A stretch of 54,670 bases of DNA, taken from an uncultured Dehalococcoidia bacterium. Its GTDB lineage: Bacteria > Chloroflexota > Dehalococcoidia > Lucifugimonadales > UBA826. Shown here piece by piece: positions 5,471-49,820 of this stretch. A program made the position numbers and the translations under genes. The notes under the pieces were generated by a model. It did no database searches and was not told the origin of the DNA. It saw nothing but the letters and a program-made list of their open reading frames with translations. Numbering within the stretch: position 1 is the first letter of the stretch; each line of letters opens with the position of its first letter. The stretch spans positions 1-54,670 of the forward strand of contig CAZZBP010000004.1 of NCBI GenBank assembly GCA_964652755.1, read 5' to 3'.

Positions 5471-6550
5471 ATGGAGCTCGGCTATTTCACAATGCCCCTT
5501 CATCCACCAGGCTCTAACATTACACAGACACTCGACGATGACCTAGACCAGATAGTGACTTTGGATAGGCTTGGATATCGAGAGGCATGGATAGGAGAGC
5601 ACTTCACTGCGCAGTGGGAGAATATACCCGCGCCCGATCTGTTCATCGCCAAAGCGATCGCATTAACTAAAAATATAATTCTTGGAACCGGTGTTACATG
5701 CATGCCCAATCATAACCCGTTTATGATCGCTCACCGGATAGCACAGTTAGACCACCTCGCACATGGCAGATTCCAATGGGGAGTAGGATCCGGAGGTTTC
5801 CCTGGTGACTTCGAAGTGTTCGGTTTTGACCCACAGGAAGACAACCATAGACAAATGGCCAGAGAAGCCGTAGAACTGGTCTTACAAATATGGGAAGACC
5901 CGAAACCTGGCAGGTATAAAAACGACTTCTGGGATTTCACTATCCCGGAACCTGATGAGGAGGTGGGGCTCAGATTTCATCTCACTCCATATCAAAAACC
6001 ACACCCGCCAATCGGAGTCGCAGGCGTCTCTCCGAAATCAGACACCTTGTCACTTGCAGGAGCGAATGGTTGGATACCTATGAGCATAAATCTCGTCCCC
6101 GGCAACACTTTAAAGGGACACTGGGAAGCAGTGGAAGCAGGAGCGCAAAATACGGTGAATGAACCCGACAGAAGTCAATGGCGTATCGCTAGGGAGGTCT
6201 TCGTGGGTGAAACCAACGAGGAGGCGAGAGAAGAAGCCCTAAACGGCATATTGAGAAGAGATTTCGACAACTATTTCCACAAGCTAATGACTAAATTAGG
6301 AATGCTCGGGTTATACAAAAAGGATCAGGACATGCCAGACATTGACGTAACTCCGGAATATGTGATGGAAAATGTCTGGATTGTTGGAGACCCGGATGAA
6401 GTCGAGGGAAAGCTCCGATCACTTCATGAGGAAGTAGGTGGCTTCGGCGTACTTCTAGCTATGGGTCATGAGTGGTCACCGGTCGATAAATGGCAGCGAT
6501 CAATGACCCTACTTGCCAAGGAAGTCATGCCCAAATTAGCAGATTTATAA
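5471..6550 (+). CDS. LLM-class (luciferase-like) flavin-dependent oxidoreductase, paralogue 1
   Basis: 359 aa. Has 'LDRLGYREAWIGEHF' and 'RFQWGVGSGG', with the overall luciferase-like TIM-barrel pattern. Confidence 0.75.
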   Translation: MELGYFTMPLHPPGSNITQTLDDDLDQIVTLDRLGYREAWIGEHFTAQWENIPAPDLFIAKAIALTKNIILGTGVTCMPNHNPFMIAHRIAQLDHLAHGRFQWGVGSGGFPGDFEVFGFDPQEDNHRQMAREAVELVLQIWEDPKPGRYKNDFWDFTIPEPDEEVGLRFHLTPYQKPHPPIGVAGVSPKSDTLSLAGANGWIPMSINLVPGNTLKGHWEAVEAGAQNTVNEPDRSQWRIAREVFVGETNEEAREEALNGILRRDFDNYFHKLMTKLGMLGLYKKDQDMPDIDVTPEYVMENVWIVGDPDEVEGKLRSLHEEVGGFGVLLAMGHEWSPVDKWQRSMTLLAKEVMPKLADL

Positions 6551-8617: not shown

Positions 8618-10765
8618 TTAATTTTTTCGACTTTTCTTAATCACGAGTATTAGCAGAGCGCAAGCTACAAAAAATGAACCTCCCATCATCATGATTAAAC
8701 GGGAGACGCCTCGGAGCGCCTCCTCTCCAACACTGGGAAGACCGAGCCCGAGCACATGCGAACTTTCCAGCAGGGAAACATTTGCGGAGCCTAAAATGAC
8801 ATCGTTTCCAGAAAGATACATTTTCAATGAAACAGATTCGCTGTTCCCCTCCACGTTCACAGCTAGGACTTCAAACTCATAATTTACATCTTCAGAAAGT
8901 CCTTGAAAGACAACAGCCAGACTGGACGCATCTGTACTCGTCGCAAGGTTGCCTGGGACCCCTGACACCAGATAACCGGTTATCGGCATACCACCATCCG
9001 CAAAAGTCTCAGACCAGGAAAGTGAAATCCCAGTATCCACGATAGTAGCGTCAAAACCAACGGGGGGAGCAGGGGGCAAAAAGGGAAGTCTGGCGAACCC
9101 ATATCCCCAAGTATTATTTGGGACCTCATCGCGGGGGTCTGCAAACGATTTCAGGTAACCAACAACCTGTGCCGGAGTGAACTCCGGAAAGCGTTCTTTA
9201 ACGAGTGCCGCGAGGCCTGCAACATGAGGTGCCGCCTGACTAGTTCCTTTCCATACGGACCGAGAGGCTGTATCTACACCATCCGGCCCAACTATGTCTG
9301 GTTTAGTTCGCCCATCGGGTGTCGGCCCTCTGGCACTATTTGGATTTATTAGGAAGGGATTGGTTATGCTCGCTGATCCTACCGCAAGCATCCCCGTATT
9401 ATTGCTTTCTGATGGGTTGGAGATCGAATAACCGGAAGTATAAATTGCAAAAACCTGGCTTGTGTGTGCTTGTAATTGCAGCCACGCCGGTATGGGACCA
9501 GACCTCCCTAAAACTGCGAAACTATAACGTCCTGATTGTACCGGGACGTATGAAAGTCTTTCTGTAGGTAATTGACCTTGCCCGCCCGATTGTAAACCAA
9601 CACTTTTTGCTACAGATTGTTCGATAGTCGATCCATAGGGATACAAGTAAAGGTTCAAGTCGGTGGACGGGTTTTCCCATGAGTCATTCCAACGTAATTG
9701 CAGCGCAAAAGGTTCGCCCTCCACCAATTGAACATAATTTGAATTTGTATCGACATCGAAGTTTAGTACGGAGTCATTATCATAGTCGGTGAAAGTACCA
9801 AACCATGTTGACTTTCTCTCGTTTCCTACTCCATTTATCCAAGTTATTCCATTCTGTACTGCGTAGTTCACCGTATTAAGCGGGCTATCGCTTCTTTGTG
9901 AAGTACCATCCCCAGGACCGTCCCATAACCACCCCACTGAATGGTTTATCACGACAACCCCCTCCGACACCATCCACTCAACAGTGTCCCTCAGTGTCGC
10001 GGGACTTTGTGGATTCGCTATATACAAAGCAGCTTTAGGAGCGACATCCATGACTAATTCCGAGACTGAAGTGCCGTGATCGGAATCGATTTCACAAGCT
10101 GAGACATCATTCTCGGTCCAATCCACGATCGACGAATAGCACCGGGAATATACTACCGATGGTAACTCGATTCCCATGTGATCTGAGAATTCTTTGAATC
10201 CTCCGTCAATCACCCCTATTTTTACAGCTCTTCCAAAATATCCGCTATCATGCCATATATCTGAACGAATCATTGATACTGCATTGCCAGTGCCGCTTGA
10301 AGTTTTTTTCTCATCAAACGATGTTGGGGCCGTTATCGCCTCAATTTTCACGACCTCCCTTTTATTAGCCAAAGGAACTATAAGCTCGATCGGGACTAAG
10401 GCCTCCAGATAGTCATTCCCTATAGAACCAACTCTTCCACCCCACATCTGAACGAGAAGTCCAAGCTTATAGGGGTTTTCTGCAACCCGCACTGAAATCG
10501 GAAACCTTTCATTATCTCCAGAGAAAAAGGATTGACGGACCTCAGGCACCCTTAATCTAGACTCCAGCATAAGATTCAGTCGGGAATCGAGTTTGGAATG
10601 AAAGTTATCCAGCAAAGAGGCTTCAAAAGGCATGTGTTCAGCGACGTCGAAGGAACCCTCACTTACCTCTTTACCTCCAGATATTTCGGTTCTAAGGAAA
10701 AATCCGTGGAACGTCAATAAAAATGTAAATACGAGAGTTAAATTAAGTATTTTCCTTACGGACAT
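8618..10765 (-). CDS. Secreted, membrane-anchored S8 (subtilisin-like) serine peptidase with an FN3-like domain
   Basis: Catalytic triad motifs 'IGVIDGG', 'DHGTSV' and 'GTSQAAPHVAGLAAL'. Signal peptide 'MSVRKILNLTLVFTFLLTF', C-terminal TM helix plus 'KKSRKN'. Start set at the ATG at 10765 because codons upstream are the antisense of a tRNA gene. Confidence 0.8.
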   Translation of the reverse strand: MSVRKILNLTLVFTFLLTFHGFFLRTEISGGKEVSEGSFDVAEHMPFEASLLDNFHSKLDSRLNLMLESRLRVPEVRQSFFSGDNERFPISVRVAENPYKLGLLVQMWGGRVGSIGNDYLEALVPIELIVPLANKREVVKIEAITAPTSFDEKKTSSGTGNAVSMIRSDIWHDSGYFGRAVKIGVIDGGFKEFSDHMGIELPSVVYSRCYSSIVDWTENDVSACEIDSDHGTSVSELVMDVAPKAALYIANPQSPATLRDTVEWMVSEGVVVINHSVGWLWDGPGDGTSQRSDSPLNTVNYAVQNGITWINGVGNERKSTWFGTFTDYDNDSVLNFDVDTNSNYVQLVEGEPFALQLRWNDSWENPSTDLNLYLYPYGSTIEQSVAKSVGLQSGGQGQLPTERLSYVPVQSGRYSFAVLGRSGPIPAWLQLQAHTSQVFAIYTSGYSISNPSESNNTGMLAVGSASITNPFLINPNSARGPTPDGRTKPDIVGPDGVDTASRSVWKGTSQAAPHVAGLAALVKERFPEFTPAQVVGYLKSFADPRDEVPNNTWGYGFARLPFLPPAPPVGFDATIVDTGISLSWSETFADGGMPITGYLVSGVPGNLATSTDASSLAVVFQGLSEDVNYEFEVLAVNVEGNSESVSLKMYLSGNDVILGSANVSLLESSHVLGLGLPSVGEEALRGVSRLIMMMGGSFFVACALLILVIKKSRKN

Positions 10766-10817
10766 AGTAGCGGCAAAGCGTATGTGAAAATATACATTCT
10801 CATTAGTAGTCCATGCC

Positions 10818-10889
10818 TCGGGGTGGCCGGGATCGAACCGGCGACCTCCTGTTCCCAAAACAGGCGCGCTACCGCTGCGCCACACCCCG
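10818..10889 (-). tRNA. tRNA-Pro (anticodon UGG); CCA not encoded
   Basis: Reverse complement folds as a perfect 72 nt cloverleaf. Acceptor CGGGGTG/CACCCCG, D stem GCGC/GCGC, anticodon stem CCTGT/ACAGG with loop TT-TGG-GA, T arm GCCGG-TTCGATC-CCGGC, discriminator A. The next 3 nt are GGC, not CCA. Confidence 0.93.
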
Positions 10890-12032: not shown

Positions 12033-12093
12033 AAATGGAATATCTAATATTTAGATTTGGCTTAATCTTAATAAAGATAAAGGAGCTTTAGCA

Positions 12094-12864
12094 ATAGACG
12101 AGCAACGAATCCGAGTACTTCTGGAAAATATACGAAGTGGCCGAACCGATGTTGACTCAGGAGTAGATGCGTTAAGGGGTCTACCTTTTGAGGATCTAGG
12201 CTTTGCTCAAGTTGATCACCATCGCTCTATACGACAAGGCTTTCCGGAAGTAGTCTTCGGACAAGGAAAAACACCACAGCAAATAGCCGATATTTCCTCC
12301 GCTATAATGTCGCGTTCGGGCAGGCTCCTTGTTACGCGAGCAAGTGAAGATGCGTTTGCCGCCGTAAAAAAGCAGCTGCCAGAAGCAGAATATGAACAAT
12401 CAGCCCGGATTATTACTGCAGGGAAGCCGAAAAATGAGTGCAGCTTGCCAGGCGTTCTCATCGCCTGTGCAGGAACATCCGATCTCCCGGTCGCAATCGA
12501 GGCAGCGTTGACTGCAGAAATGATGGGATGTGTTGCGGAACGTATTTTTGACGTTGGCGTAGCAGGAATACACAGGCTATTTGACAAGCTAGACAATCTG
12601 AACGAGGCCCGTGCTATCGTGGCGGTCGCTGGAATGGAGGGCGCCCTTCCGTCAGTTATTGGAGGATTGGTGGACGTTCCGATCATAGCTGTTCCAACAA
12701 GTGTTGGATATGGAGCAAACCTAGGGGGGATTGCTGCATTGTTAGCTATGTTAAACAGCTGTGCGCCGGGTATTGCCGTTGTGAATATTGACAATGGCTT
12801 CGGTGCAGGATATCTCGCGGCAAACATAATTTTATCCGCAGAGAGAAAAGCCAAACAAGTATAA
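12094..12864 (+). CDS. larB: Nickel-pincer cofactor biosynthesis protein LarB (PurE-like pyridinium-3,5-biscarboxylic acid mononucleotide synthase)
   Basis: C-terminal AIR-carboxylase-like domain 'ACAGTSDLPVA', 'VAVAGMEGALPSV.GG' and 'PVIAVPTSVGYG'. The conserved N-terminus 'LGFAQVDHHRSIRQGFPEVVFGQGKTPQQI' is encoded upstream of the first ATG (12307) in the same frame. The 5' end is uncertain: no ATG, GTG or TTG is in frame. 'AAGGAG' at 12080-12085 lies 8 nt before an ATA at 12094. Confidence 0.7.
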   Translation: MDEQRIRVLLENIRSGRTDVDSGVDALRGLPFEDLGFAQVDHHRSIRQGFPEVVFGQGKTPQQIADISSAIMSRSGRLLVTRASEDAFAAVKKQLPEAEYEQSARIITAGKPKNECSLPGVLIACAGTSDLPVAIEAALTAEMMGCVAERIFDVGVAGIHRLFDKLDNLNEARAIVAVAGMEGALPSVIGGLVDVPIIAVPTSVGYGANLGGIAALLAMLNSCAPGIAVVNIDNGFGAGYLAANIILSAERKAKQV

Positions 12865-12882
12865 GCCCACTCAGGAGCTAAC

Positions 12883-14457
12883 ATGTCAGACAGAGCATTC
12901 ACCACTTATCCATACGGTATGACATCAAAAAAGGAACCTCTAAATGGCCTCGTTTGCGGTGATTTTCAAACCGCAGATAATATCTATAGAATCGCTTTAG
13001 TCAGCGGTCTCTCCGGTAAAATAGCCTCACGAGAGGCACACGAGGAAGCTTTAGACGTACTTCTTAATACCCCTAAAGAATTGTCTTTTATCGCTGCTGA
13101 TCTAAGCAGGACTAACGCCAGCTTGGCTGAATCCTCCTACCCTGCCAACGACGGGTATTTTTTTGACCAAACATGTCCGGAGTCTAGGTACCTGTGGCGG
13201 TGGATTACGATGGAGGCACCAGACATTGTTCTGGAATTGGACCCTGGGTCCCCCAGATCCGTGAAATACTACACAGGAGGCGCTAACGATGGTTCGTTGT
13301 TATCTGCCCTGGCAAGCGGTAAAGGGCAGACCCCGGGACCAATCCCCGGGATAAGACTCACATGTCCGACCGATACTGTTGGTAAGGAAGTGGAAGCGGT
13401 CCTTGATAAAATCCGGTCCGATTCTCCTACACTGTCGGGCGCTCGATCCGAACTTGACAAACGATCAGCAAGATCTCCTCTAAATACGGCCCGTGTTCTC
13501 GGGAAAATTTACGGTTACAAACTTGACGAGCCAGTTAACTACGTTCAAGGAGTAGCAATTAGCGGTCGAATGAGGCTTAGCAACCTAGATCCTGCCTACC
13601 CTGACCCTGCGGACAGCGTAGTCAAACTAGTAGAATTTCTTAATACGGAAGCTGGTTTCGCCGGCAACGATAGGACAGGGCCCAATTTAGCAGCCATGTG
13701 CTGGGCAGAAGATCTCCTCGAGTCGACACGTGACGAAATATGGAAGAATCTACTGTTGAAAGCTGCTAACACATACAATCAATCCAAGAGCGGTACTGCA
13801 CCGTACCCCTGCCATCCAGACTTTGGCTGTGAAGATATGTTTTTCATTTCGGCGATGTGTGGGCGTGCCTACAAGATTACCGGAGACGAGCAATATTTGG
13901 ATACATATAGCAACTTCCTGTTGGAGGCTGATATCCAGCAGAGCGACGGCCTCTTTTGGCATTGCAGATCGGCTCCCTATTTTTGGGGTAGAGGTAATGG
14001 TTTTGCGGCCCTGGCATTCGCTGAAGGCCTCACATACATGCCCGATCAACATTCCTCAAGGAATGAACTTATTGCGATGCACACACACCACCTTGATGGT
14101 CTCTCTAGATTGCAACAACCTTCTGGCATGTGGACTCAACTACTCGACTATCCAGGAACCTATCAGGAAATGTCTGCCACCTGCATGATTGGCTATTCTA
14201 TGGCAAGGGGAATACGGTTGGGATGGTTGGATCAAAGATTCCTCTCCGTTCTGGAAAAAGCCTGGGATGGGGTCAACAGAAGGATTTCGAACCAAGGCGA
14301 TCTGGTCGATGTTTGTACCGGGACTGGTTTTCAGGAAAGCCGTGAGGACTATATTTACAGAGCGGCCGAATACGGGTACGACGACAGAGGCGGATCTATG
14401 GCAATTTGGTTTGCCACAGAAATGGAAAGGCTACAGCGATCCATAAGTAACAGGTAG
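12883..14457 (+). CDS. GH88/GH105-like (unsaturated glucuronyl/rhamnogalacturonyl hydrolase-like) protein with a ~250 aa N-terminal extension
   Basis: 524 aa. The C-terminal half has 'FWGRGNGFAALAFAE', 'MWTQLLD' and 'DDRGGSMAIWFATE', reminiscent of the YteR/UGL (alpha/alpha)6 barrel. SD 'CAGGAGC' precedes the ATG. The N-terminal half is unassigned. Confidence 0.5.
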   Translation: MSDRAFTTYPYGMTSKKEPLNGLVCGDFQTADNIYRIALVSGLSGKIASREAHEEALDVLLNTPKELSFIAADLSRTNASLAESSYPANDGYFFDQTCPESRYLWRWITMEAPDIVLELDPGSPRSVKYYTGGANDGSLLSALASGKGQTPGPIPGIRLTCPTDTVGKEVEAVLDKIRSDSPTLSGARSELDKRSARSPLNTARVLGKIYGYKLDEPVNYVQGVAISGRMRLSNLDPAYPDPADSVVKLVEFLNTEAGFAGNDRTGPNLAAMCWAEDLLESTRDEIWKNLLLKAANTYNQSKSGTAPYPCHPDFGCEDMFFISAMCGRAYKITGDEQYLDTYSNFLLEADIQQSDGLFWHCRSAPYFWGRGNGFAALAFAEGLTYMPDQHSSRNELIAMHTHHLDGLSRLQQPSGMWTQLLDYPGTYQEMSATCMIGYSMARGIRLGWLDQRFLSVLEKAWDGVNRRISNQGDLVDVCTGTGFQESREDYIYRAAEYGYDDRGGSMAIWFATEMERLQRSISNR

Positions 14458-15258: not shown

Positions 15259-15398
15259 AACTTTACAAAATGCTTGTATCCTGTCGCGATAACAATTTCA
15301 GTTAAGGAGAATGTTAATCACACAGTCATTTGCAAATTTTTCGACCGCAAAGCCAACAAACCAAAAGTAAAAAGGGACACTTGCAGGAGATAATAAAT

Positions 15399-16460
15399 AT
15401 GGATATCGGAGTTGGACTTGATCCTACACTGGGCTTGACACTCGAACAGCAATTTGAACTTTCGCGCGAGGCAGCCCGACTTGGATATCAAAGCATATGG
15501 ACACCTGAAGGTACTGGGCAGGATTCATACCAAATGTGTCTAATGAGGTGGGCAGCAAGTAAAGAGGTAATAGAGGGAGGACTTGAAACAGGGATCGCAG
15601 TTTCACCCGTCATATGGAGAAGCCCGGCGGCATTTGCAATGGCTGGGGGAACGGTAAGTCAGATGACCGGCGGACGATTTATCATGGGGATTGGTTCAGG
15701 ACAGGCACACTTACCCATTGGAAGGAGGGTGATGAAGCTGCAACAGATGTCCGCCTTGACATTAATGCGGGAATACCTGGTCATCATAAGAGGACTCCTC
15801 AGAGGCGAAAAAGTGGATTATCAAGGCGAAGTGGCTACCTTGAGGGGAATTAGATTAGGAATCAGACCTGCCCCCGAAACCCCCGTTTATCTTGGTGCCC
15901 TAGGACCTAAGATGCTGCAACTTGCCGGTGAGCTATCGGACGGTGCTGCGTTGAATTGGTGTGCCCCAGATCAAATCGCCTGGAGCCGCGAGAGAATAAC
16001 GGAAGGTGCGACACAAGTAGGTCGTGACCCGTCAGAAGTAAAGGTATCTGAGTACATTAGGGTTTGCGTGGATGAAAATGAGGATCGAGCTCGTATAGCT
16101 CTTGCCAAGGCGACGATGAATTATGCATTGGGACCGGTTGTTCCTACCGAAACGCAGAGGAGATTTGGATACCGGGCTCATTTCGAGCGAATGGGTTTTA
16201 CCTCAGAGCTGGGGAGACTTGACGAAATGAGAAAAACCGGTGCTAGCAACGACGATATTGCTGAGGCTTTCCCGGAGAACATATTGCGGGCAGTCGCCTA
16301 TTTTGGAAAGTCGGAGGGAGCAGCAGCCGAATTTGCCAGACTTTCAAAAGGATTAGACAACGCGATCGTGAGAGTCGTTTCTTCAAGGCCTGGCACAGTC
16401 GAAGGAACCCTTGATGTGATGAATGCCTGCGCGCCTCAAACAGTAAGGGCGCATATCTAG
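15399..16460 (+). CDS. LLM-class F420/flavin-dependent oxidoreductase, paralogue 2
   Basis: 'ARLGYQSIWTPE' and 'GRFIMGIGSG' fit the luciferase-like TIM-barrel pattern. Start set at the ATG at 15399 with SD 'AGGAGA' 8 nt upstream. The tracked TTG at 15330 is less likely. Confidence 0.7.
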   Translation: MDIGVGLDPTLGLTLEQQFELSREAARLGYQSIWTPEGTGQDSYQMCLMRWAASKEVIEGGLETGIAVSPVIWRSPAAFAMAGGTVSQMTGGRFIMGIGSGQAHLPIGRRVMKLQQMSALTLMREYLVIIRGLLRGEKVDYQGEVATLRGIRLGIRPAPETPVYLGALGPKMLQLAGELSDGAALNWCAPDQIAWSRERITEGATQVGRDPSEVKVSEYIRVCVDENEDRARIALAKATMNYALGPVVPTETQRRFGYRAHFERMGFTSELGRLDEMRKTGASNDDIAEAFPENILRAVAYFGKSEGAAAEFARLSKGLDNAIVRVVSSRPGTVEGTLDVMNACAPQTVRAHI

Positions 16461-18331: not shown

Positions 18332-19480
18332 TCAGGCGACTATTAATCCCGAGCCACCAGGGCTCGCTCCTGAGTACAACTTGTTCAAATTCGCATATTT
18401 TTCAGGGTTCAGGTCTCGACCCGAAATAGCGAGGTCGTGGGATCCATATTTGTGGGCGCGAAACACCATATTACTTGGAGCGCCGGTGCGCAAATCAGGA
18501 GTTTGAAACGGATTCACATATTCCCAGACTACATCTCCCTTCTCGGTGACTTCAAAAATCCTACCGAAAGCTCCCTCACATATGAGTGTATTCCCGTTGG
18601 CTAAACGTTCGGCACTGCTTATGTGAAAACTAAAGAAGGCCATAGGAGGTGTTTCCGTATATTCCCACTTCACTTTCCCACTCTCCGGATCCACTTCAAT
18701 TACCCGAGATCTGTCCGCCCCTTTTGAATGACTACCATTATCGAAGAGCAAGATATTTCCATTATCCAAGAACGTAGGATGGTGCTGGTGCCAAACCTCC
18801 CCAGGACCCCATTTCCACAGGAATCGGCCCGATTCCTTTCCTATAATGCCTATGGTACTTGTGTTCCTAAAGCTGACCAAGAAATCACCGTCAGGTGTCA
18901 GGTTTATACAGTTAGCGTGGGTCCATTCCCGCCTATGCTCTAATGGACAAATAACGTCTTCATCGTAGGAAAGGCTTTCCGAAATATTCCATTCACTGAC
19001 GGTATCCCCATCCGGCGAAATTTCTCTTATTAGATCACCAAGAATGGTAGGCGAATCCTCTTCAGATACATATCCGCCCTGAACCTTTTTCGTAGTCTCC
19101 TCGTCTAGTGGGTCAAACAATAACGCCAGCGTATTTCCATTCGATAATCTTACAAAGTCGTGGTGAAGCATTGGGTCATCGTATCGCCAGATCACTTCAC
19201 TCTCCCAGTTAATTTCTAAAAGAGCGGCCGAAGATCCTCCGAGATTCTGAACTAATTCCACATCGGTGGATGGATTTGTCCTGCATAAGAGATTCCCAGA
19301 GGAAAGAAGGTATGCATAGACTATCCCCTCTTCAGAATTCCACCTGTGTACTATCCTTCCTTCCATATCAAGCAGGGTAGCGTGATTGCCGCCATTTACG
19401 TTGGTGAACAGTGTGTAGCCACTATAAGCTGAGGAGGAGTTGTGAATTAGCCCCACAGGATGATGAATAGATCTGCCCAT
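18332..19480 (-). CDS. Arylsulfotransferase (ASST)-like beta-propeller protein
   Basis: 382 aa. Has 'LHHDFVRLSNGNTL', 'EWTHANCINLTPDGDFLVSFRNTSTIGII', 'HQHHPTFLDNGNILLFDNG' and 'RLANGNTLI', the His-rich repeat pattern of ASST-family proteins. No obvious signal peptide. Confidence 0.55.
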   Translation of the reverse strand: MGRSIHHPVGLIHNSSSAYSGYTLFTNVNGGNHATLLDMEGRIVHRWNSEEGIVYAYLLSSGNLLCRTNPSTDVELVQNLGGSSAALLEINWESEVIWRYDDPMLHHDFVRLSNGNTLALLFDPLDEETTKKVQGGYVSEEDSPTILGDLIREISPDGDTVSEWNISESLSYDEDVICPLEHRREWTHANCINLTPDGDFLVSFRNTSTIGIIGKESGRFLWKWGPGEVWHQHHPTFLDNGNILLFDNGSHSKGADRSRVIEVDPESGKVKWEYTETPPMAFFSFHISSAERLANGNTLICEGAFGRIFEVTEKGDVVWEYVNPFQTPDLRTGAPSNMVFRAHKYGSHDLAISGRDLNPEKYANLNKLYSGASPGGSGLIVA

Positions 19481-19498: not shown

Positions 19499-20344
19499 CT
19501 ATTTCACTAACGGGGTATCTTCGCGGTTCGCCCACTCTCCCATAGAGCCGTCATAGTTTCGCACTTTCTCATAGCCAAGCAGGGTGAGAACAAACACTCC
19601 GTGCGCCGCACGGATGCCTCCCTGTCAATACGTCACTATCTCTTTTTCAGGAGTCACTCCAGCAGCCTCAAGAATGTCGCGCAACTCTTGAGGGGACTTA
19701 AAAGTGTGATGTTTGTCATTCGTGACGAAATTAAGCCATTCAAGATGAACCGCGTCGGGAATCCTTCCAGATCTGCCGTTTCCCCTATCGACGGTTCCCG
19801 TCCATTCCTCATCAGACCGTACATCCAAGAAAAGCGTCTCATCATTTCCAATCGCTGACATAGCGTCGTCAATGAGACAAACCAGGTCGGGTTCCGACTT
19901 CGGCGTGAAGGTCACTTCTTTTTTCACCGGGCGGTCTATAGAAACAGGCCTCCCCTCATCAAACCACTTTTTCCAGCCTCCATCGAGAACTCTCGAATTA
20001 TTGTGTCCATAGTAGTTTAAGACCCACCAAAACCGAGAAGCCCACAAACTTCCACTGCTGTCATAAGCCACTACTGTGGTATCGTCTCCAATGCCCATAT
20101 CCTCAAATAGCTCTTTCACCACATCAGGTTCTGCAACCAAGGGATAGGATTTGGGGTCTCTTGCATAATCCGGATGTTTTATATAGTGATGCACTTTGAT
20201 CCCCGCCGCACCCTCGATGTGAGCTCTCGTATAAGAATCAAAAGGATCGCAATCGACGATCCTAATATCAGAATCACCTATATGTTCTTCCAACCATTGG
20301 GTAGACACTAAAATTTCTGGTTTAATAAAGCCATTGGACGGCAT
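19499..20344 (-). CDS. Two-domain rhodanese (thiosulfate/3-mercaptopyruvate sulfurtransferase-like) with in-frame TGA at the catalytic Cys position; candidate selenoprotein
   Basis: The tracked ORF ends at TGA (19625-19627). The same frame continues 'QGGIRAAHGVFVLTLLGYEKVRNYDGSMGEWANREDTPLVK' to TAG at 19499-19501. 'Y-[TGA]-QGGIRA' matches the rhodanese active-site loop C-x-x-G-x-R. Total length is 281 aa from the ATG at 20344, which has SD 'AGGAGA' 6 nt upstream. The alternative reading is a pseudogene created by a nonsense mutation. Confidence 0.6.
19580..19624 (-). promoter_or_regulatory. Putative bacterial SECIS-like hairpin immediately 3' of the in-frame UGA
   Basis: mRNA sequence: UGA-CAGGGAGGCAU-CCGUGC-GGC-GCACGG-AGUGUUUGUUCUCA-CCCUG. 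The upper stem CCGUGC/GCACGG is 6 bp and starts 11 nt after the UGA, with a G-rich apical loop. The lower stem CAGGG/CCCUG closes the element. Pairings were checked by hand. Confidence 0.45.
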
Positions 20345-20449
20345 CAGAAGTCTCCTATCACTGATTTCCAGAACAACCAAAAGATCGCACTGAATCTAGG
20401 GGGAAATTGGCCGGAGTATACCACAATAGAACAGCCACACAGGCACGTA

Positions 20450-21397
20450 TCATAGAAGTGTATAAGACAACTCTGGAATAACTTGGTAGCGTAGTTTTTC
20501 TAGATGTTCCATATGGTCGAAAACTGGATTAAACATCACCATCTCTGCCCCAGAATTAATAACTTCTTGGATACTCTCAGTGCATTTTGCCACACTACCC
20601 CAGACGGAAACGTGTGCAGCCAGATCGGCATTGCCATAGTGTGCTCCAAACCAGTTGGACAATCGAGCCTTCGCTCTTTCTTCATCATCATCTATTGCAA
20701 CGTATACCCGTTTCGATATCACAAATTCAGACTCCGGCCTTCCAATCCGGATTAATTCAAAATGGATGATTTCCACATGTTCTCTAAACTCACCCGTGGA
20801 TGTAGAACCGGCACCCATCCATCCATCTCCCATTGTTACCGCCCTTTTCAGGGCATCTAGGTGCCTGCCTCCGAACCAAATAGGAGGACCGGTCTCCTGT
20901 ACTGGCAGGGGTCTCATCTTTATGCTATCGAAGTCCCAGAACACACCATGATGCGAGGCACTTCCTGAAGTCCAGAGGGCTCTGATAACACTCAAAAACT
21001 CAATGAAATGTCTCACTCTCTTCTCCCGAGGGGCTCCCAGCAACGGATACGTCGCAGCCCGACCTCCGAGAGCGATACCCAGCGTCAATCTGCCTTTCGA
21101 AAGGTTGTCAATTGTGCAGAGCTCTTTCGCCAGAAGAAACGGATTCCTCGTAGTGGCGATTATCACTGCTGTCCCCAGTCGAATACTCTTGGTAGAGGCT
21201 GCCAGATAGCTTAAGAGAGTTAAAGGTTCAAGCGAGTCGGCAGTTCCAATAATCCTTTCCTGCACCCAGAGGCTGTCGAAGCCGAGATCCTCCGCTCGGC
21301 TAGCGAACTTTCTTATCAAGTCTAGATCAATAGGATCTTCTGTAAAAACCTGCGGAATGGCTATCCCACAGGAGACATTTCCGTCAACGCTTTCCAT
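20450..21397 (-). CDS. LLM-class F420/flavin-dependent oxidoreductase, paralogue 3
   Basis: 315 aa. 'AEDLGFDSLWVQERI' and 'GRLTLGIALGG' fit the luciferase-like TIM-barrel pattern. Confidence 0.7.
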   Translation of the reverse strand: MESVDGNVSCGIAIPQVFTEDPIDLDLIRKFASRAEDLGFDSLWVQERIIGTADSLEPLTLLSYLAASTKSIRLGTAVIIATTRNPFLLAKELCTIDNLSKGRLTLGIALGGRAATYPLLGAPREKRVRHFIEFLSVIRALWTSGSASHHGVFWDFDSIKMRPLPVQETGPPIWFGGRHLDALKRAVTMGDGWMGAGSTSTGEFREHVEIIHFELIRIGRPESEFVISKRVYVAIDDDEERAKARLSNWFGAHYGNADLAAHVSVWGSVAKCTESIQEVINSGAEMVMFNPVFDHMEHLEKLRYQVIPELSYTLL

Positions 21398-23477: not shown

Positions 23478-26400
23478 GTGATTGCTGCGTTTTTACGATT
23501 CAGTGGACTTCATTGGGATGAGGGATTTTCTTATACTCCACATCCCGACGAAAGAGCGATTCTCATGAAGAGTCGGGAAATAGAGATGCCACCATTATCG
23601 AAGTTAGGCACTTTATTTAACGCAGACGAAAGTACCTGGAATCCGAGATGGTTTCCTTACGGAAGTTTTCCTTTATATGTTCTAGAAATTAGTGAGAACA
23701 TACTAGAAAGGATGACCGGGACAGATGTAACCGATCTACGTACATTGGCAAGATCGATATCTGTTCTCGCCGATCTCGGAACTATCATTGGAATAGCTAT
23801 GCTAGGTAAGTCTGCTTTTAGCAGAAGAGTAGGACTTCTTGCAGCATTTCTGATTTCGTTCTCAGTTATCCATATTCAACTGGCACACTTTTTCGCTTTC
23901 GATACGTTGACTGTATTTTTCACCACTTGGTCGTTGTTAGTTCTATATCGCCTAACCATTAGCGGGAAAAGGAGTCATTCCTTAATAGCCGGTGCCCTTA
24001 TAGGCCTTGGTTTAGCAACAAAAGTTAGTCTCTTGCCAATAGCTGGCGCGTTTGTAATGGCTCATTTAATCTACGCTGCGCGGAATCAAACTATGGAGGA
24101 TATCCAGTACTGGAAGGTGAAAAAAGCCCTAATTTCAGGCGCCTGGGGCATATTAGCCGGCTCATTAATATTCGTTCTGGCTCAGCCCTATGCTTTATTG
24201 GACTGGAACAGGTTCATAGGTGATGTCACCGAGCAATCTGAGATGGTTCGTAGGATCAGAGATTACCCTTACACAAGGCAGTATATTGGTACTACGCCAT
24301 ATGTCTACCAATTTATCCAAATGGGCAAATGGGGACTAGGATGGCCGCTCACTATCATTTCTGTCGTGGGTCTGTTTTGGTCAGCTTCCAAGGGCCTCAA
24401 ATTAGTGCCCGCGATTCTGTCGATTCTTTGCTGCGCAATTATCCCGGCCTCGGTCCTACTGTGGAATAACAGTGCACCTGCAATTGTGGTGTCTTCACTA
24501 ATTTGCTTTTTCTCTCTAATCATATTTTCGCCATTTCGGGGAAAAGGAACCTCCATCTTTATACTCTTGCTGTCATGGGTTCTACCTTACTTGCTCGTGA
24601 CGGGCAGTTTCGAAGTGAAGTTCCTTCGTTATTTGCTACCTGCTATACCGGTAATCGCATTGCTTGGGTCGGCATTTGTCATCCATTGTTTTCATAGAAC
24701 TCCCAGATACAGCCAGATCTCTGCAGCATGCCTGATACTCCTCACTGTGATTGTAACGGTATGGTACGGATTCTCCATGATGGGAATATATGGCGAGAAG
24801 CATACTGCCGTAAAAGCATCTGAATGGCTAGCTAAATATGGGAAAAGTGGCTCCTTGATCATCAAGGAGCATTGGGAAGAGAGCCTACCCAATCTTCGAA
24901 ATTTTCGATATGAGGAACTACCTATTTATGAAGATGACACGTACTTCAAACTGACTCACATTTCAGAGTCATTGCACAGGGGTGACTACTTAGTTCTCTT
25001 CAGTAACAGACTTTACGGGACGGTCACAAGAATCGAAGACAGATACCCGGTCATGAAAGGTTATTACAGGGCTCTTTTTACAGGAAAGTTGGGTTATGAA
25101 CCTGTGCTGATAGAGACGTCATATCTAAATCTCCTCGGAATAAATCTTATTGAGGACACCTTTGACCGCCCAGGAGTCCCAGACCCGAGCAAAAGATTAA
25201 TACCGCCATATGACAAAGCTGGCATACAAATTGGATTCGTTGACGAAAGTTTCTCTGTTTATGATCATCCTAAAGTGATGATATTCGAAAATAGAAACCG
25301 CCTGTCTGCGACGGTAATCAGAACAGAAATTGAATCTGAAACGATAAGTTTTTCAGCATTAAATAAGGTCAAACCCAGATCCCCACCTAAAGATTTAATG
25401 ATGGATGAAGAGATGCTCCGCTCTCAACGAAGCGGAGGAACCTGGTCAGGGATAATCAGTAAGAACCCCATATCTTCCCGATTTCCTGTCGCCACCTGGC
25501 TCGGTATCATCGAGTTGATTTCACTCTGCGCTCTCCCCCTATCCTTTTTTGTATTCAGGGGGCTACTCGCAAGAGGATATCTACTTGCAAAAATACTGGG
25601 AATTCTGTTGACATGTTTTTTTGCCTGGCTTCTCTCCAGCATGCAGTTGATGAAATTTGAGGATACAACGATGTGGGTCAGTCTGGGTGCACTTATGCTC
25701 ATATCCTCATCAGTGCTGTATTTCAGAAGAGACGACATCCTCAGTTTCTTACGGGTTCAATGGAAACGCCTTGTGATACTTGAATGTGTCTTTCTCTTGG
25801 CATTCTTCTCATTTCTTCTGATCCGGATGGCGAACCCTGATCTATGGCACCCCTATAGGGGTGGAGAAAAGCCCATGGACATGGCATACCTAAACGCTGT
25901 CTTGCGATCCAGTTATATGCCGCCCTACGATCCCTGGTTTTCAGGCGGATATATGAACTACTACTACTGGGGTCAATTCATTGTAGCGTCGCTTATCCAT
26001 ATGTCTGGGATAACGACTGAAGTTGCCTACAACCTTGCAATTCCAACATTATTCGCTTTCACCGCCGGTGCTGCCTTCACAATCGGTTCAAACTTAGTAG
26101 GAAGAACAGCCCTTAATTTGAGTCATCGGACCAAAATATTCCCATTAGCTGCAGGTATGTCTGGTCTTATTTTCGTTTGTGTAATAGGAAACCTAGATGG
26201 GTTTTTTCAAAGTTTCGGGATACTAAGTGACAAGATAATTAATGGGTTATCTGGCGGAGAATTTGATTACTGGCGTAGTAGTCGGATGATGCCACCAGAC
26301 CCTCCAGGACACGAGATCACAGAATTCCCGTTTTTCACTTTCCTTTTCGCGGACCTACACGCTCATCTTATTGCCCTACCGTTTACGTTGCTCGTAATAG

Positions 26401-27818
26401 GAACATCGATGTCGATCATATTCTCAAGCCGCGGCAGGACCCCGGGAAAAGTGGAAGAGACCGTCAGATTGTTGTTGTTAGGGCTATCTCTAGGCTCCCT
26501 CAGAGTTATAAATACCTGGGACCTGCCCGTGTACGTTTTTATTTCAGTTGGAAGTGTCGGTATTGGTCAATTCATACGGCATGGCGGAATCAACTTAACA
26601 GTAATCTACAAAACCTGTTGTAAATCTATGCTTGCTCTCACAGTTGCCTTTATTGCCTTTATTCCCTACCACTTGAATACCGTAACTTATTTCAATGGGC
26701 TAGAACCAACCACAAACATGACGACATTCAATCAACTGGTTTCGATAAATGGATTATTTCTATTTTTAATCGCCTCCGGTTCATTATATCTACTGAGGGC
26801 AAAAGTAGGCACGGTACTTTTAGAGATCAGACGGCTCGGACTAGCTACCTTGAATCCAAGAGTACTATCGTCTACAGAAATCTACCTAGGCCTAATACTA
26901 ATGCTCGCTCTGGGTTACATAATTACTGCATTACTCAATGGTTCTTTAGGAGGGGCGTTACCGGTTTCCATTTTCCTCCTGATCCTGGTGATTGCAGCAG
27001 CGCTCAGAAAGTGTCGTCAAGAAATGAACGAACAACCGGTCTTACTTTTCGCTTCACTCATGGCTGCAGGAGGCCTGAGCATAATAGCCTTCCTCGAAAT
27101 CTGGCGAATTGAAGGCGATATAGATCGCATGAACAGCGTATTTAAATTTTATACACAAGCATGGGTGCTCCTTGCTCTGGCTTCTGTTTACTTTTCCTAC
27201 CGGATCATGCTAACAATCAAAAATACCTCTAGCCTCATAAAATTCCCTTGGATAGGAATAGCTTCAATCCTGGTTCTTGCCGGACTTATTTATCCTGTGA
27301 TGGGCACTAGGGATCGTCTGCGAGATCGTTTCAACGGTAATGTCACGCCCCTGACACTAAACGGGTATGCATACCTAGAAGGAACTACTTATACAGATAT
27401 TAAAGGTGAAATTGATCTGGCAACCGATTTCGAAGGAATCGAATGGTTGCGAGAAAACGTTAAAGGATCCCCGGTAATTATCGAAGGCTTAACACCAACC
27501 TACAGGTGGGGAGGACGCGTATCTGTAAACACAGGACTTCCTACTGTAGTCGGTTGGAAGTGGCATCAGGAACAGCAGAGATGGGGAATGAAGCATCTGG
27601 TAAGTAGTCGCCAGGAGGACGTGAATACCATATACAGTTTACCAGCAGCAGCAGCTGACTTAATTGACAAATATGAAGTTGAATACGTGTATATAGGCGA
27701 ACTGGAACGGCTCTACTACCCAAACAACAGCCTTGAGAAGTTAGCTCAAGGATTAAACGGGAAATTATCGAGAGTGTTTGAATCTGACAGTGTGATAATA
27801 CTTAAGGTGAGCCGGTAA
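23478..27818 (+). CDS. Giant polytopic membrane protein: GT39/ArnT-like N-terminal module plus DUF2298 ('Chlor_Arch_YYY') domain
   Basis: 1446 aa with more than 25 predicted hydrophobic helices. N-terminal 'HPDERA' loop as in PMT/ArnT-like glycosyltransferases. '[20 protein letters not shown]' matches the YYY-motif domain as I recall it, reported as restricted to Chloroflexi and Archaea. The 5' end is uncertain (see findings). Confidence 0.75.
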   Translation: [1446 protein letters not shown]

Positions 27819-28891: not shown

Positions 28892-30148
28892 ATGGCCAAA
28901 CTCTCAAACTTGGAGTTATGCCAAACCGTGCCTTACGAAGCCCTAGATGGATATCTGGTCATCGACTTGTCTGACCGTCTTGCAGGTTCTTTCTGCGCAA
29001 AAACACTCGGCTTGTATGGCGGCGAGGTTGTCAAAATTGAGCCCCTGGAAGGAGACCCATTAAGGCAATTAGGCCAAACCGAAGATGAACCCGATGAAAG
29101 TGACAGCTCACTTTTCCTTCATCTCAACGTCGGAAAGAAAAGCCTCACCCTGAACCTGGAAACAGCGGAAGGTAAAGAGATACTTGGCATCCTGTTACAA
29201 AAGGCAGATATTCTAGTCGAGACGTTCATTCCAGGAAAATTAGCTTCCATGGGTTTTGCATACGAGGACATTGCAAAGCAAAATCCTGGCCTCATAATGA
29301 CTTCCATTACCCCTTACGGCCAGACTGGCCCTTATAAGGAATTCAAATACACTGAGCTCACAGTATTTGCAATGTCCGGGGCTATGCATAGAGAGGGTCT
29401 ACCAGAGAGGTATCCCCTTCGATACGGTGCAGAAGTTGCCCAGTATTATGCTGGCAACTCTGCCGCAGCAGCTACTACTTCCGCCCTATTCAGAAGATTT
29501 AAAACCAACTTTGGAGACTGGATAGATATCTCAATACAGGAATGTATGGCAGGCCATCCCCACCAGATTGGTAGAAGGGCTCCTTTCATATATTCCGGAG
29601 AGCTCGACCCCCGAACACAACCTCGAGTGTCTGCGGCTGGAGCCAGAGAACCTTACGCGGTGGGCACATTCAGGTGCCGAGACGGGCACGTAAGTTTTCT
29701 GCCACTCGGCCCCAGAATGTGGCCAAATATAGCAAGAATGATTGGTCAAGAAGACCTTATGCTCGATCCTCGCTTCAACGACCCTGATAAAAGAAGCGTT
29801 AACAGGGAAGCCTTAGAAAGCATTTTCCAGTCATGGCTAGACAAACGTACGCGTGAAGAGATATTCATTGAGGTTCAAAAAGCAGGAGTGCCTGGGTCCC
29901 CTATCCTTCGAAGTGAAGAAGTAATGGAGAACGAACAATTTGAGTCAAGGGGGTTTTTTACAGAAGTTGATCATCCAAATTCAGGTACTCTTAAATATAC
30001 TGGAGATCCATTTAGGTTAACAGCTCTTCCTTACAAGAAACGAATGTCCGCGCCAACGGGCGGGCAACAGACGAATCAGGTCTTAAAGGATCATCTCCAG
30101 CTTTCCTCTGAAGACATTGCGACTTTGAAAAACAAGGGAATCGTGTGA
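28892..30148 (+). CDS. Family III (CaiB/BaiF) CoA-transferase, copy 1
   Basis: 418 aa. N-terminal 'L.GYLVIDLSDRLAGSFCAKTLGLYGGEVVKIEP', 'PGKLASMGF.YEDI...NP.LI..SI..YGQTGPY', and a C-terminal 'G.P..L' region. Confidence 0.8.
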   Translation: MAKLSNLELCQTVPYEALDGYLVIDLSDRLAGSFCAKTLGLYGGEVVKIEPLEGDPLRQLGQTEDEPDESDSSLFLHLNVGKKSLTLNLETAEGKEILGILLQKADILVETFIPGKLASMGFAYEDIAKQNPGLIMTSITPYGQTGPYKEFKYTELTVFAMSGAMHREGLPERYPLRYGAEVAQYYAGNSAAAATTSALFRRFKTNFGDWIDISIQECMAGHPHQIGRRAPFIYSGELDPRTQPRVSAAGAREPYAVGTFRCRDGHVSFLPLGPRMWPNIARMIGQEDLMLDPRFNDPDKRSVNREALESIFQSWLDKRTREEIFIEVQKAGVPGSPILRSEEVMENEQFESRGFFTEVDHPNSGTLKYTGDPFRLTALPYKKRMSAPTGGQQTNQVLKDHLQLSSEDIATLKNKGIV

Positions 30149-31536
30149 GCAAAGAACAAGTGAGCTCTATATCGGGCTTCCCTCTTGAAGGAGTTAGGGC
30201 ACTAGAACTTTCGGAGATTTGGGCGGGACCTTTCTGTGGATCCTTGTTAGCTGACATGGGAGCAGAAATTATCAAAGTCGAGTCTGTACAGAGAATAGCT
30301 AGAGGCCCTATAAACCCGCCAAAAGGGTCGGGAGCATACCCGGATGGGGATCCCGGGGAACGTCCTTGGAACAGACAGTCTAACTTCAATGCTATAAACC
30401 GGAACAAGAAGGGAATTACTCTAGATCTCAAGACGAACGCTGGCGTAGAGACGTTTCTCGATCTGACCTCTACTTCGGACATAATTTTCTGCAATTATGC
30501 AAGGTCAGTAATGGAAGATTTTGGGCTAGGCTATGAAAAGCTTCGAAAAGCAAGACCTGACATCATTTTCATGCTAATGCCCGGCTATGGAAATACTGGA
30601 CCATATCGTGATTACAGAAGTATGGGAATGGCGATAGACGCAATTAGCGGACATTCTTTCTTGAGGGGCTATCCGGATCTAGACCATTCAACAAATTCTC
30701 TCGTTCATCACCCTGATGCAGCTGCCGCGGTCAACGCTGTCTTCGCACTCACCACCGCGTTAATATACCGAGAAAAAACGGGAATAGGGCAGTTCATTGA
30801 TATGTCCCAGGCGGAATCCTTTATGACTCACATGGGAGAGGTATTTCTAGAATATCAAATTCATTCAAAACCAAGGAAGCGTCAAGGTAACCGGAATTCC
30901 CACTACGCGCCACAGGGGGTTTATCCGTGTAAAGGTGAAGATAACAGGATTGCACGCAGCATCGTTACAGAGTCGCAATGGAAGTCTTTTATCCGCTGCA
31001 TTCCTTTGCCCAGCCTTAGAGACAAGAAATTTTCGAGCGTGAAAAATAGAATCGCAAATCATGATGAGTTGGACCTAGCAATAGAGAAATGGACATCTAG
31101 TAAAGACCGATACGAAGTCATGGATACACTGCAATCTTCAGGAATTCCTTCCGGAGTAGTTCTGAACTGCGGTCCTGACACATATGACGACCCACATTTG
31201 AACGAAAGGGAGTTCTTTCAGATAGTTGATCATCCTGACGCCGGGATCTTTCCCATGACTGGTCCGGTCCTCAGGTTCCAAAGTAATGCAGGAGTTGTCT
31301 TGCATAATCCTTCCCCTTGCTTGGGTCAACACAATGATTATGTTCTCGGCGATATTCTGGGTTATACACAAAAGAAGATGGATACTCTTGCTTCAGACAG
31401 TGTTATTGGAACAGTACCGCTACCGGGATCGGATCTAGGTGGATCTCGCAGAGCGTCCATTGAATCAGTTCATCGAGAGTCCATGAGTCAACAAACTAAT
31501 ATTAACCCGAACACACATAACAGTAAGGAAGAATAG
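30145..31536 (+). CDS. Family III (CaiB/BaiF) CoA-transferase, copy 2
   Basis: 463 aa. 'LEGVRALELSEIWAGPFCGSLLADMGAEIIKVE' and 'GYGNTGPYRDY'. The GTG start overlaps the upstream stop (GTGTGA), indicating an operonic pair. Confidence 0.8.
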   Translation: MSKEQVSSISGFPLEGVRALELSEIWAGPFCGSLLADMGAEIIKVESVQRIARGPINPPKGSGAYPDGDPGERPWNRQSNFNAINRNKKGITLDLKTNAGVETFLDLTSTSDIIFCNYARSVMEDFGLGYEKLRKARPDIIFMLMPGYGNTGPYRDYRSMGMAIDAISGHSFLRGYPDLDHSTNSLVHHPDAAAAVNAVFALTTALIYREKTGIGQFIDMSQAESFMTHMGEVFLEYQIHSKPRKRQGNRNSHYAPQGVYPCKGEDNRIARSIVTESQWKSFIRCIPLPSLRDKKFSSVKNRIANHDELDLAIEKWTSSKDRYEVMDTLQSSGIPSGVVLNCGPDTYDDPHLNEREFFQIVDHPDAGIFPMTGPVLRFQSNAGVVLHNPSPCLGQHNDYVLGDILGYTQKKMDTLASDSVIGTVPLPGSDLGGSRRASIESVHRESMSQQTNINPNTHNSKEE

Positions 31537-32201
31537 ATGCCAATACGGAATACTTCGATATCGATCAAGAGGAAATAATGGTTTATCAATGACTCACCAA
31601 CTTACAAAGGTAGAGAATTCAAGGGAAAACCTACAGAAGGACTGTTATTGAACTCGCGAATGGTTAACGCTATGTTTGATGATAAAAATCCACATGCCAA
31701 ACACCTAAGGAATTATCCGGACACAAATGAATAGAACCTTGACAGAAACACATCCGAGTTCATCAAGATGTTACCGCTTTATAAGATTCACGGCCTTTTT
31801 GCGTTTAGAGTGAATTTTCAGGGCGGAGTCCCTTGGGGTTATTGCCGGCTTGAACCGTTTCACGATTATATGTCGGCTATTGGAATGGAAATCTCATACG
31901 AAGAGCTATGGTAATCGAAACAAGATCTCTGGCCCATTACAAACCAATGCCGATTTTGTTCAATGAAGATAATCATCTTGGATTTGAAAACAACGCAAAT
32001 AACTTCTCCAAGACCATAAAAAATTATGCTGGCTGGGAATGTTTTGACCCTGGAAAAGGTGCAGGTGGGACGTCGGATTTTGGCAATTACAAAGTGGGAT
32101 ATCAACTTGTTCCCACAAATTGGAGGATAAATACAGCCGGAAAAAATCTTACTTTGAATTCCTCAAGAAAGTCACTTCAAGTTGAGGGCGCGTATGTCTG
32201 A
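31537..32201 (+). pseudogene. Decayed gene remnant: three in-frame stops plus one frameshift; family unknown
   Basis: Frame 1 reads from the ATG at 31537 through TAA (31576), TAG (31732) and TAA (31909). Protein-like segments lie between them, for example 'GKPTEGLLLNSRMVNAMFDDKNPH' and 'HGLFAFRVNFQGGVPWGY'. Coding-like sequence then continues in another frame from 31908 ('PILFNEDNHLGFENN...WECFDPGKG'). Confidence 0.4.
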
Positions 32202-47288: not shown

Positions 47289-47379
47289 AATGTCTGCCAT
47301 TGACAGTAAGGATAAAAGGTGATCTGATACCGTCAGTTCCAGTGGCAATATGCAGATTAACAAGTGACATTAAAGTGAA

Positions 47380-48727: not shown

Positions 48728-48745
48728 TGGTTAGCACAAGTTAAA

Positions 48746-49819: not shown

Positions 49820-49820
49820 T

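Follow-up and report, generated by a model that had tools for sequence, protein, structure and literature searches.

A two-domain rhodanese of SAR202-type Dehalococcoidia with a predicted selenocysteine at its catalytic position

The stretch of DNA analyzed here (the window, 54,670 nucleotides from an uncultured Dehalococcoidia bacterium) carries on its minus strand a complete gene, at 19499..20344, for a two-domain rhodanese in which an in-frame UGA (19625..19627) occupies the column of the catalytic cysteine. The UGA is very probably decoded by SelB/SECIS-directed insertion of selenocysteine (Sec) at residue 240, giving a sulfurtransferase that would carry the transferred sulfur on selenium. 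Assignment of the gene to an already catalogued family of predicted selenoproteins is well supported by its domain type and active-site motif. The evidence comes from the position of the UGA in the rhodanese fold, its conservation in relatives, the selection acting on the codons behind it and a hairpin that accompanies it.

The open reading frame runs on the minus strand from 20344 to 19628 and ends with '...PEKEIVTY' before the TGA at 19627-19625. Past the TGA the same frame reads QGGIRAAHGVFVLTLLGYEKVRNYDGSMGEWANREDTPLVK and stops at a TAG at 19501-19499. These 41 codons (19502..19624, minus strand) would be translated only upon UGA decoding, and they encode the rest of the active-site loop and a conserved 'LLGY..RNYDGSMGEWAN..TPL' C-terminus. 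The joined protein has 239+1+41 = 281 amino acids, an architecture common to all relatives. Its predicted Sec-spanning peptide is EIVTYUQGGIR, and the part beyond residue 240 includes NYDGSMGEWANR. A Shine-Dalgarno-like AGGAG, read directly from the sequence at 20352..20356 of the minus strand, lies 7 nt 5' of the ATG (20344-20342). The first-pass annotation had already described the TGA after 'PEKEIVTY' and the 41 in-frame codons up to the TAG, and the coordinates agree on re-reading. Its apparent gap of 144 nt to the next ATG (19480) is also right; the distance it gave from the TAG to that ATG, 19 nt, is really 18 nt. In random sequence a frame would stay open for 41 codons with a probability of about 0.14. 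The extension alone is not rare by chance, so the significance of the read-through frame rests on homology.

For the Pfam and PDB comparisons, U was replaced by C in the joined query. The 281-aa protein matched Pfam Rhodanese (PF00581) in two stretches (6e-37) and aligned end to end, across the TGA, with the solved sulfurtransferases 1uar (7e-46), 8k55 and 3hzu; its homologues carry Cys or TGA at this position. The two Pfam matches and the end-to-end alignments bear out the earlier suggestion that the joined protein has two rhodanese domains, and the product of the SAR202-type gene is, as judged from these alignments, a two-domain SseA/COG2897-type sulfurtransferase. The N-terminal domain (19961..20305, minus strand) corresponds to the best PF00581 stretch, residues 14-128, and is non-catalytic, with an Asp at the position equivalent to the catalytic residue ('VVAYD-SSGSLWA'). 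The C-terminal domain, approximately residues 171-281 (19502..19834, minus strand), is the predicted catalytic one with the loop U240-Q-G-G-I-R-A. The alignment partners of this domain are 1uar (residues 166-282), 3hzu, 3p3a, 3aax and 3hwi. In these five solved enzymes the UGA column is the active-site Cys of 'yCRiGERS', which agrees with the first reading of Y-[TGA]-QGGIRA and its tail as a rhodanese catalytic loop. The nucleophile position is the first of the six-residue active-site loop of the C-terminal domain, and a Sec is predicted there in the loop U-QGGIR-A. The protein shares with Cys-type two-domain thiosulfate/3-mercaptopyruvate sulfurtransferases (1uar, the rhodanese of T. thermophilus; 3hzu, SseA of M. 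tuberculosis; the thiosulfate sulfurtransferases 3aax/3hwi; and 1e0c, RhdA of A. vinelandii) the fold, the length, the inactive N-domain and catalytic C-domain, the six-residue loop after the nucleophile and the 'NYDGSW.EW' tail. It differs from these enzymes in the predicted Sec in place of Cys and in the loop, QGGIRA versus RIGERS, at about 35-40% identity.

A TGA at a catalytic codon may also have arisen by nonsense mutation or by an error of sequencing or assembly, or it may mark a decaying pseudogene, in which case the downstream frame would be a relic. A single window is unable to rule this out, and about 14% of random sequences would show a 41-codon extension; the DNA of relatives is what bears on it. 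A protein search of a 5.8-billion-protein database gave, as the best 120 matches, homologues with 59-98% identity. All of them are 238-253 aa long and cover 81-85% of the 281-aa query; they are equally short because gene callers end all of them at the same column. We examined the DNA of 80 relative loci, one genome per species, mostly from Dehalococcoidia/SAR202 with 8 from Candidatus Binatia and 1 from Tectomicrobia. TGA stood at the catalytic column in 80/80 of them, followed by an in-frame QGGIRAAH...NYDGSMGEWAN...TPL and a real stop. With the 239-aa part as query, 1.84 billion cluster representatives were searched exhaustively. The Sec-rhodanese family falls into one 50%-identity cluster, and 16 more clusters end exactly ahead of the catalytic column. 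DNA was obtained from six of these 16 (35-49% identity), and all six had the TGA and a conserved in-frame tail. When the window gene, the 80 species loci and the 6 divergent clades are taken together, the identical TGA column is found in 87/87 independent sequences. They span 35-98% protein identity and three phylum-level lineages (Dehalococcoidia/SAR202, Binatia and Tectomicrobia), and the gene is present on complete chromosomes (e.g. OY762210.1, OZ220685.1, OY282441.1 and OZ252229.1, and OZ253480.1 from Binatia). One observation on the side of decay is a 1-nt frameshift in the relative L056, which lies 27 nt 5' of the TGA within a GGGCCCGG run; the TGA and tail of L056 are intact, and the frameshift is most simply explained as an assembly indel. 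Decay of the tail in close relatives, which the first-pass annotation had named as a sign against Sec decoding, was not seen: the tails of the 86 other sequences are free of stops and frameshifts.

The tail is also constrained at the protein level. The pooled Nei-Gojobori dN/dS was 0.13 for tail codons +11 to +39, as compared with 0.26 in the 49 codons upstream of the TGA. Past the hairpin described below, many tail columns are more than 93% conserved in amino acid while the third positions vary freely (1.2-1.9 bits), and conservation of the tail starts with the first codon after the UGA. This codon pattern indicates that the tail is translated and under purifying selection. The same data bear on the idea that the UGA mainly terminates translation and that the gene makes a functional 239-aa protein without the active-site loop, perhaps with a role in binding or regulation, the tail being rarely or separately translated. 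The 239-aa form is indeed what gene callers and GenBank deposit. However, conservation from the first post-TGA codon leaves no room for a separate start of the tail, where neither a start codon nor a ribosome-binding site was seen, and selection is tighter on the tail than on the codons upstream. Judging from the alignments, a C-domain cut before the catalytic loop and the last helix would be unlikely to fold. We consider a truncated functional product highly improbable.

Directly behind the UGA, at 19596..19615 of the minus strand, lies a predicted upper stem-loop of a bacterial SECIS (bSECIS), recognized by its fold, its frozen synonymous sites, its pair counts, its absence in Cys forms and published bSECIS criteria. 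The hairpin occupies nucleotides 11-30 past the UGA and has the form CCGUGC-GGC-GCACGG. A19615 pairs with U19596, and a 7-bp stem joins U19614...C19608 (U-C-C-G-U-G-C) to G19604...A19598 (G-C-A-C-G-G-A), with G19607-G19606-C19605 as the apical loop and G19597 bulged. The same nucleotides encode I-R-A-A-H-G within the active-site loop. The core CGUGC-GGC-GCACG was invariant in the 81 sequences of the main family. Among 110 well-conserved codon columns, a third-position entropy below 0.55 bit was found solely in residues 236-246, all others being at 0.61 or above. The low-entropy codons are UAU UGA CAG .. AUC CGU GCG GCG CAC GGA, with UAU in 80/81 and GCG, GCG and CAC in 81/81 sequences, and the codon context UAU-UGA-CAG is nearly invariant across relatives. 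Synonymous divergence was 0.29 in the ten hairpin codons versus 0.76-0.78 in the flanks. Since low as well as high G+C contents are represented among the genomes, codon bias does not explain the frozen synonymous sites.

[quoted passage not shown] The GGC loop, the stem of 5-7 bp and the UGA-to-loop spacing of 17 nt fall within these ranges. For the 42 nt that follow the UGA, the MFE was -7.5 kcal/mol or lower in 80/81 main-family sequences, with a mean of -10.0 kcal/mol over the 81; for the hairpin window in the six divergent Sec clades it ranged from -5.4 to -12.0 kcal/mol. Read as C-GGC-G, the loop fits the N1-G[G|U]-N-N2 pattern. In the most divergent clade (L086) the peptide is ARAALA for IRAAHG, and the hairpin is retained with the same loop at the same distance through compensatory swaps in three pairs (U-A to A-U, C-G to G-C and U-A to C-G). 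In-register pairing was seen in 94.7% of cells over 68 distinct sequences, versus 15-63% with slid partners. Both sides changed in 4/8 hairpin pairs, a number reached in 0/500 shuffles, the independent events being few and mostly from one clade. These pairing data point to selection on the RNA structure of the hairpin itself, with few covariation events.

The signal is confined to the hairpin. The 81 nt around the UGA folded no better than shuffled sequence (z = -0.06), so the region is not unusually stable and the signal is the local hairpin and its conservation, not bulk stability. The Rfam SECIS models gave no match at gathering and permissive thresholds, and no other occurrence of the hairpin core was found in 637 kb of window and flanks. 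A lower SECIS helix (CAGGGN with ..CCCUG) was paired in 72% with mostly one-sided variation and is not claimed. The layout of the E. coli fdhF/fdnG SECIS, the bacterial SECIS that has been defined by experiment, is similar in that a stem-loop within the coding sequence directly follows the UGA, the upper stem starts 11 nt on, the small apical loop contains G and the upper stem has a bulged nucleotide. The predicted element differs from it in having a GGC rather than a GGUC-type loop, a bulge on the 3' side and no sequence similarity, and SelB binding to it is putative.

Homologues with a cysteine at the UGA column allow the hairpin to be separated from the peptide it encodes. Among the 1.84 billion cluster representatives, 14 full-length homologues of 270-292 aa carry Cys at this column, for example P0121 with 'VTYCQGGVRAA...NYDGSMGEWANRTNTPLVK', P0153 with 'TYCQGGIRAAYA' and P0163 with 'TYCQAGIRAAF'. 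These three metagenomic Cys forms, paralogues or orthologues, are the closest ones; they have up to 48% identity to the window protein and share with it the C-Q-G/A-G-I/V-R-A-A loop and the C-terminal tail. They differ in having TGT or TGC at the column and in using other synonymous codons for the loop peptide, such as AUA AGG GCU GCG UAC, and they have no hairpin. The equivalent windows of the three Cys-form genes, which encode QGG(I/V)RAA or QAGIRAA, gave only -0.8, -1.7 and -4.8 kcal/mol. Since Cys forms keep the same peptide without the hairpin, the hairpin accompanies the TGA and not the peptide. The UGA column forms a predicted Sec/Cys pair with these homologues. Given the shared loop and the different codons, a Cys/Sec switch would need little beyond the change between TGY and TGA and synonymous changes in five codons. 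The first-pass annotation had left a choice between Sec and a TGC/TGT-to-TGA nonsense mutation. The first of these is very probable; the second does not hold, because the TGA in 87/87 sequences, the purifying selection on the tail and the SECIS-type hairpin linked to the TGA together exclude a nonsense mutation or error, the probability of which we put next to zero.

How the UGA is decoded is a separate matter. Elsewhere in the window TGA serves as a normal stop: the long open reading frames end with 13 TGA, 13 TAA and 10 TAG, and TGA terminates 12 of the 35 other than the rhodanese; there is thus no code reassignment, and decoding in the rhodanese gene must be local and context-dependent. It may take place without selenium, either by read-through with Trp, Cys or Arg via a near-cognate or suppressor tRNA, or by Sec machinery that delivers Cys (Cys-tRNA(Sec)) at low selenium. 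A weak UGA-C context and the hairpin would help such read-through, and the outcome would be either a Cys rhodanese of the usual kind or a variant without activity. UGA-C, invariant in the relatives, is the leakiest stop context in E. coli, and Cys is known to be inserted at Sec codons under selenium limitation. The window also holds no Sec machinery. ARAGORN found no tRNA-Sec in its 54.7 kb or in about 580 kb of flanks of related genomes, reporting tRNA-Pro alone in the former and tRNA-Asn alone in the latter, and SelA, SelB and SelD were absent from the 30 window ORFs annotated with Pfam and NCBIfam. Two ORFs of SelA/SelB size, 30145-31536 and 32182-34137, encode a CoA-transferase and an S9 peptidase. 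A second selenoprotein gene was found neither in the window by a read-through scan nor in the flanks by an all-against-all search for U/C pairs. Of the three read-through candidates in the window, one proved to be non-coding sequence, another a LarB/AIRC-like gene that is intact, and the third the place where a biotinyl-domain protein normally ends. The U/C pair matches in the flanks were off-frame artefacts and a decayed LLM pseudogene remnant, with nothing else.

Several lines of evidence stand against selenium-free decoding. The hairpin fits the SelB-type SECIS consensus in both loop sequence and spacing. The column requires a Cys-like nucleophile; with Trp or Arg there the enzyme would be dead, in contrast to the strong conservation of the gene. 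If Cys were to be delivered at the UGA, a plain Cys codon would be simpler, and close Cys forms exist. The lineage is moreover documented as Sec-using and rich in selenoproteins. SelA and SelB occur in each of three sponge bins with SAR202 as the closest 16S relative (PMC5649159, Table S4), a tRNA-Sec variant of the 8/4 form has been reported from Chloroflexi, and BSepDB lists two Dehalococcoidia MAGs, with 49 and 46 selenoprotein genes, in its top ten bacteria by this count. Mukai et al. 2017 (PMC5424206) contains nothing relevant on UGA-to-Cys recoding in Chloroflexi. Decoding without selenium is unlikely on this balance.

We infer SelB-dependent decoding, selenium incorporation and Se-S chemistry in the following manner. 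As the ribosome nears the UGA at 19625-19627, the mRNA hairpin that begins 11 nt downstream would act as a bacterial SECIS and recruit SelB-GTP-Sec-tRNA(Sec). Sec would be inserted as U240 and the last 41 codons would then be translated; without UGA decoding, the rhodanese product would lose its whole active site. The transferred sulfur would reside on selenium as a Se-S intermediate instead of on a Cys persulfide.

Sec-containing rhodaneses have been predicted before. In 2005 a 'rhodanese-related sulfurtransferase' (COG2897) was described from the Sargasso Sea data as a new selenoprotein family of three sequences, for which a SECIS was predicted. The GOS survey of 2008 listed the rhodanese-related sulfurtransferase as cd01449, with 8 Sec sequences versus 3,367 Cys homologues, and a 2026 review gives the family as 'rhodanese-like form 4, UxxG'. 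The first-pass annotation was therefore accurate in stating that marine selenoprotein lists from the Sargasso Sea and GOS surveys include such proteins. The published family and the gene described here are alike in being two-domain SseA-type and marine, with Sec for the catalytic Cys, a U-x-x-G motif (here U-Q-G-G) and a SECIS directly downstream. The match was made by domain type and motif, the representatives AACY01016424 and MCY3690685.1 being known here by description; MCY3690685.1 was not seen among 10 NCBI-sourced clusters. Given that the family is catalogued and that Dehalococcoidia are already known to be selenoprotein-rich, the gene is not a new kind and implies no new mechanism. The published accounts examined come without a host lineage, a conserved neighbour or an estimate of breadth, as compared with more than 80 species and deeper clades here. 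The selenoprotein literature examined contained no biochemical study of, or selenium-incorporation experiment on, any Sec-rhodanese. Nor is the Sec form mentioned in the SAR202 papers examined that discuss rhodanese or in those that combine 'SAR202' with 'selenocysteine', all of which is in line with the earlier statement that no biochemistry and no SAR202 report were known. Five aspects seem to go beyond the literature examined. The first is the breadth of the family, which takes in several deep clades and three phylum-level lineages and has over 80 species. The second is an almost fully frozen SECIS within the catalytic-loop codons, and the third is the existence of Cys forms that have the same peptide. 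The fourth is the routine deposition of the protein at 239 aa, e.g. MCH8186105.1, and the fifth is a conserved gene pair.

The other member of this pair is an arylsulfotransferase-like (ASST) beta-propeller gene at 18332..19480 on the minus strand, which starts 18 nt past the rhodanese stop and matches Pfam PF05935/PF14269. The best PDB match of its product is the sulfotransferase 9kf4 (4e-9). An ASST-like gene lies directly downstream of the rhodanese on the same strand in 48/80 species. It is a conserved partner and probably belongs to the same operon, and the Sec-rhodanese probably works together with the ASST-like protein. A more specific and rather doubtful reading is that the two form a selenium-dependent sulfur/sulfate transfer module of SAR202-type Dehalococcoidia, in which the Se-S intermediate at U240 feeds or regenerates the partner. 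As part of the same tentative reading, selenium supply might also gate expression of the ASST-like partner, since translation would be uncoupled by a stop at the UGA, 144 nt ahead of the partner start. A related point, put forward with equal reserve, is that the QGG(I/V)RAAH loop peptide may have been pre-adapted to encode a SECIS; if true, this would explain repeated Cys/Sec switching and the spread between phyla.

In the dark ocean SAR202 bacteria are abundant, and a role in sulfur cycling has been proposed for them. Their rhodanese, for which transcripts have been reported, has been discussed as an enzyme that uses thiosulfate, apparently with no note of a dependence on Sec. On the evidence above, one widespread copy of this enzyme would be selenium-dependent. 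Because the protein is deposited in a truncated 239-aa form, metabolic reconstructions hold a protein without its active site, and the selenium demand of the lineage would be underestimated. The family, whose Sec and Cys forms share their active-site peptide and whose SECIS lies inside the loop codons, offers a clean test of what Sec gains over Cys in persulfide chemistry, a comparison that to our knowledge nobody has made for any Sec-rhodanese. The practical value of the finding would lie in the annotation of these genes and in a system for the comparison of Sec with Cys.

Directly downstream of the rhodanese gene, with only 18 nt between the rhodanese stop and its start in the window, lies an arylsulfotransferase-like beta-propeller gene (18332-19480, minus strand; PF05935/PF14269). 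Among the 80 species loci compared, this gene is immediately 3' of the rhodanese on the same strand in 48, with identities of 51-75%, and in loci among L001-L076 it lies about 135-300 nt past the rhodanese TGA. It does not adjoin the Binatia and Tectomicrobia rhodanese copies in this set. In 19 loci the next gene is ThuA. The arylsulfotransferase-like protein of the window is without an obvious signal peptide, and its top solved-structure match is the sulfotransferase 9kf4 (4e-9).

The gene preceding the rhodanese in the window encodes an F420/luciferase-like oxidoreductase (20450-21397). In the loci of the closest relatives, L081 (9600-9960) and L001 (2600-2960), this gene is reduced to a short remnant with in-frame stops upstream of the rhodanese, where a 54-aa ORF was called. 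The remnant is a genuine local pseudogene, and its decay contrasts with the unbroken rhodanese tail at the same locus. In L056 (BPKO01000001.1, Tectomicrobia), the rhodanese gene is split by a 1-nt frame shift within a GGGCCCGG run, 27 nt 5' of its TGA; the corresponding database protein, P0090, is 253 aa long. Since the TGA, hairpin and tail downstream of the frame shift are all unbroken, the shift probably reflects an indel introduced in assembly, not decay of the gene.

The mis-annotation of the predicted selenocysteine rhodanese gene in databases is systematic. A 239-aa product that ends ahead of the active site is deposited publicly (GenBank MCH8186105.1, the JGI entries and the 120 best matches), under the labels 'sulfurtransferase' or 'thiosulfate/3-mercaptopyruvate sulfurtransferase' (MCH8186105.1; JGI entries in the cluster of database protein P0106).

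The AIRC/LarB-like gene (about 12080-12867, plus strand) is unbroken and collinear with its 256-aa counterpart in L081, the closest relative. Because no ATG, GTG or TTG occurs at the position homologous to the L081 start, its ORF is listed as merely 185 aa, from an internal ATG. The ORF antisense to it (12216-12905) was rejected as an artefact. A 755-aa subtilase/fn3 ORF from the mechanical gene call (8618-10885, minus strand) runs at its 5' end into the tRNA-Pro(UGG) gene (10818-10889, minus strand); the true start of the protein must be further downstream. Three very large plus-strand ORFs encode 1446 aa (23478-27818), 1292 aa (39227-43105) and 1358 aa (43155-47231); synteny with L081 identifies the first as the counterpart of a PMT_2/DUF2298 membrane glycosyltransferase-like protein.

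A cobalamin riboswitch (47365-47567, plus strand; Rfam RF00174, 39 bits) immediately 5' of a periplasmic-binding-protein/FecCD permease/ABC ATPase operon (47639-50621, plus strand) constitutes a typical B12-regulated uptake system. Paralogue expansions have been described in SAR202. The three luciferase-like (LLM/F420) monooxygenase paralogues (5471-6550, 15330-16460 and 20450-21397) and two side-by-side family-III CoA-transferase paralogues (28892-31536), all inside 55 kb, fit these expansions.
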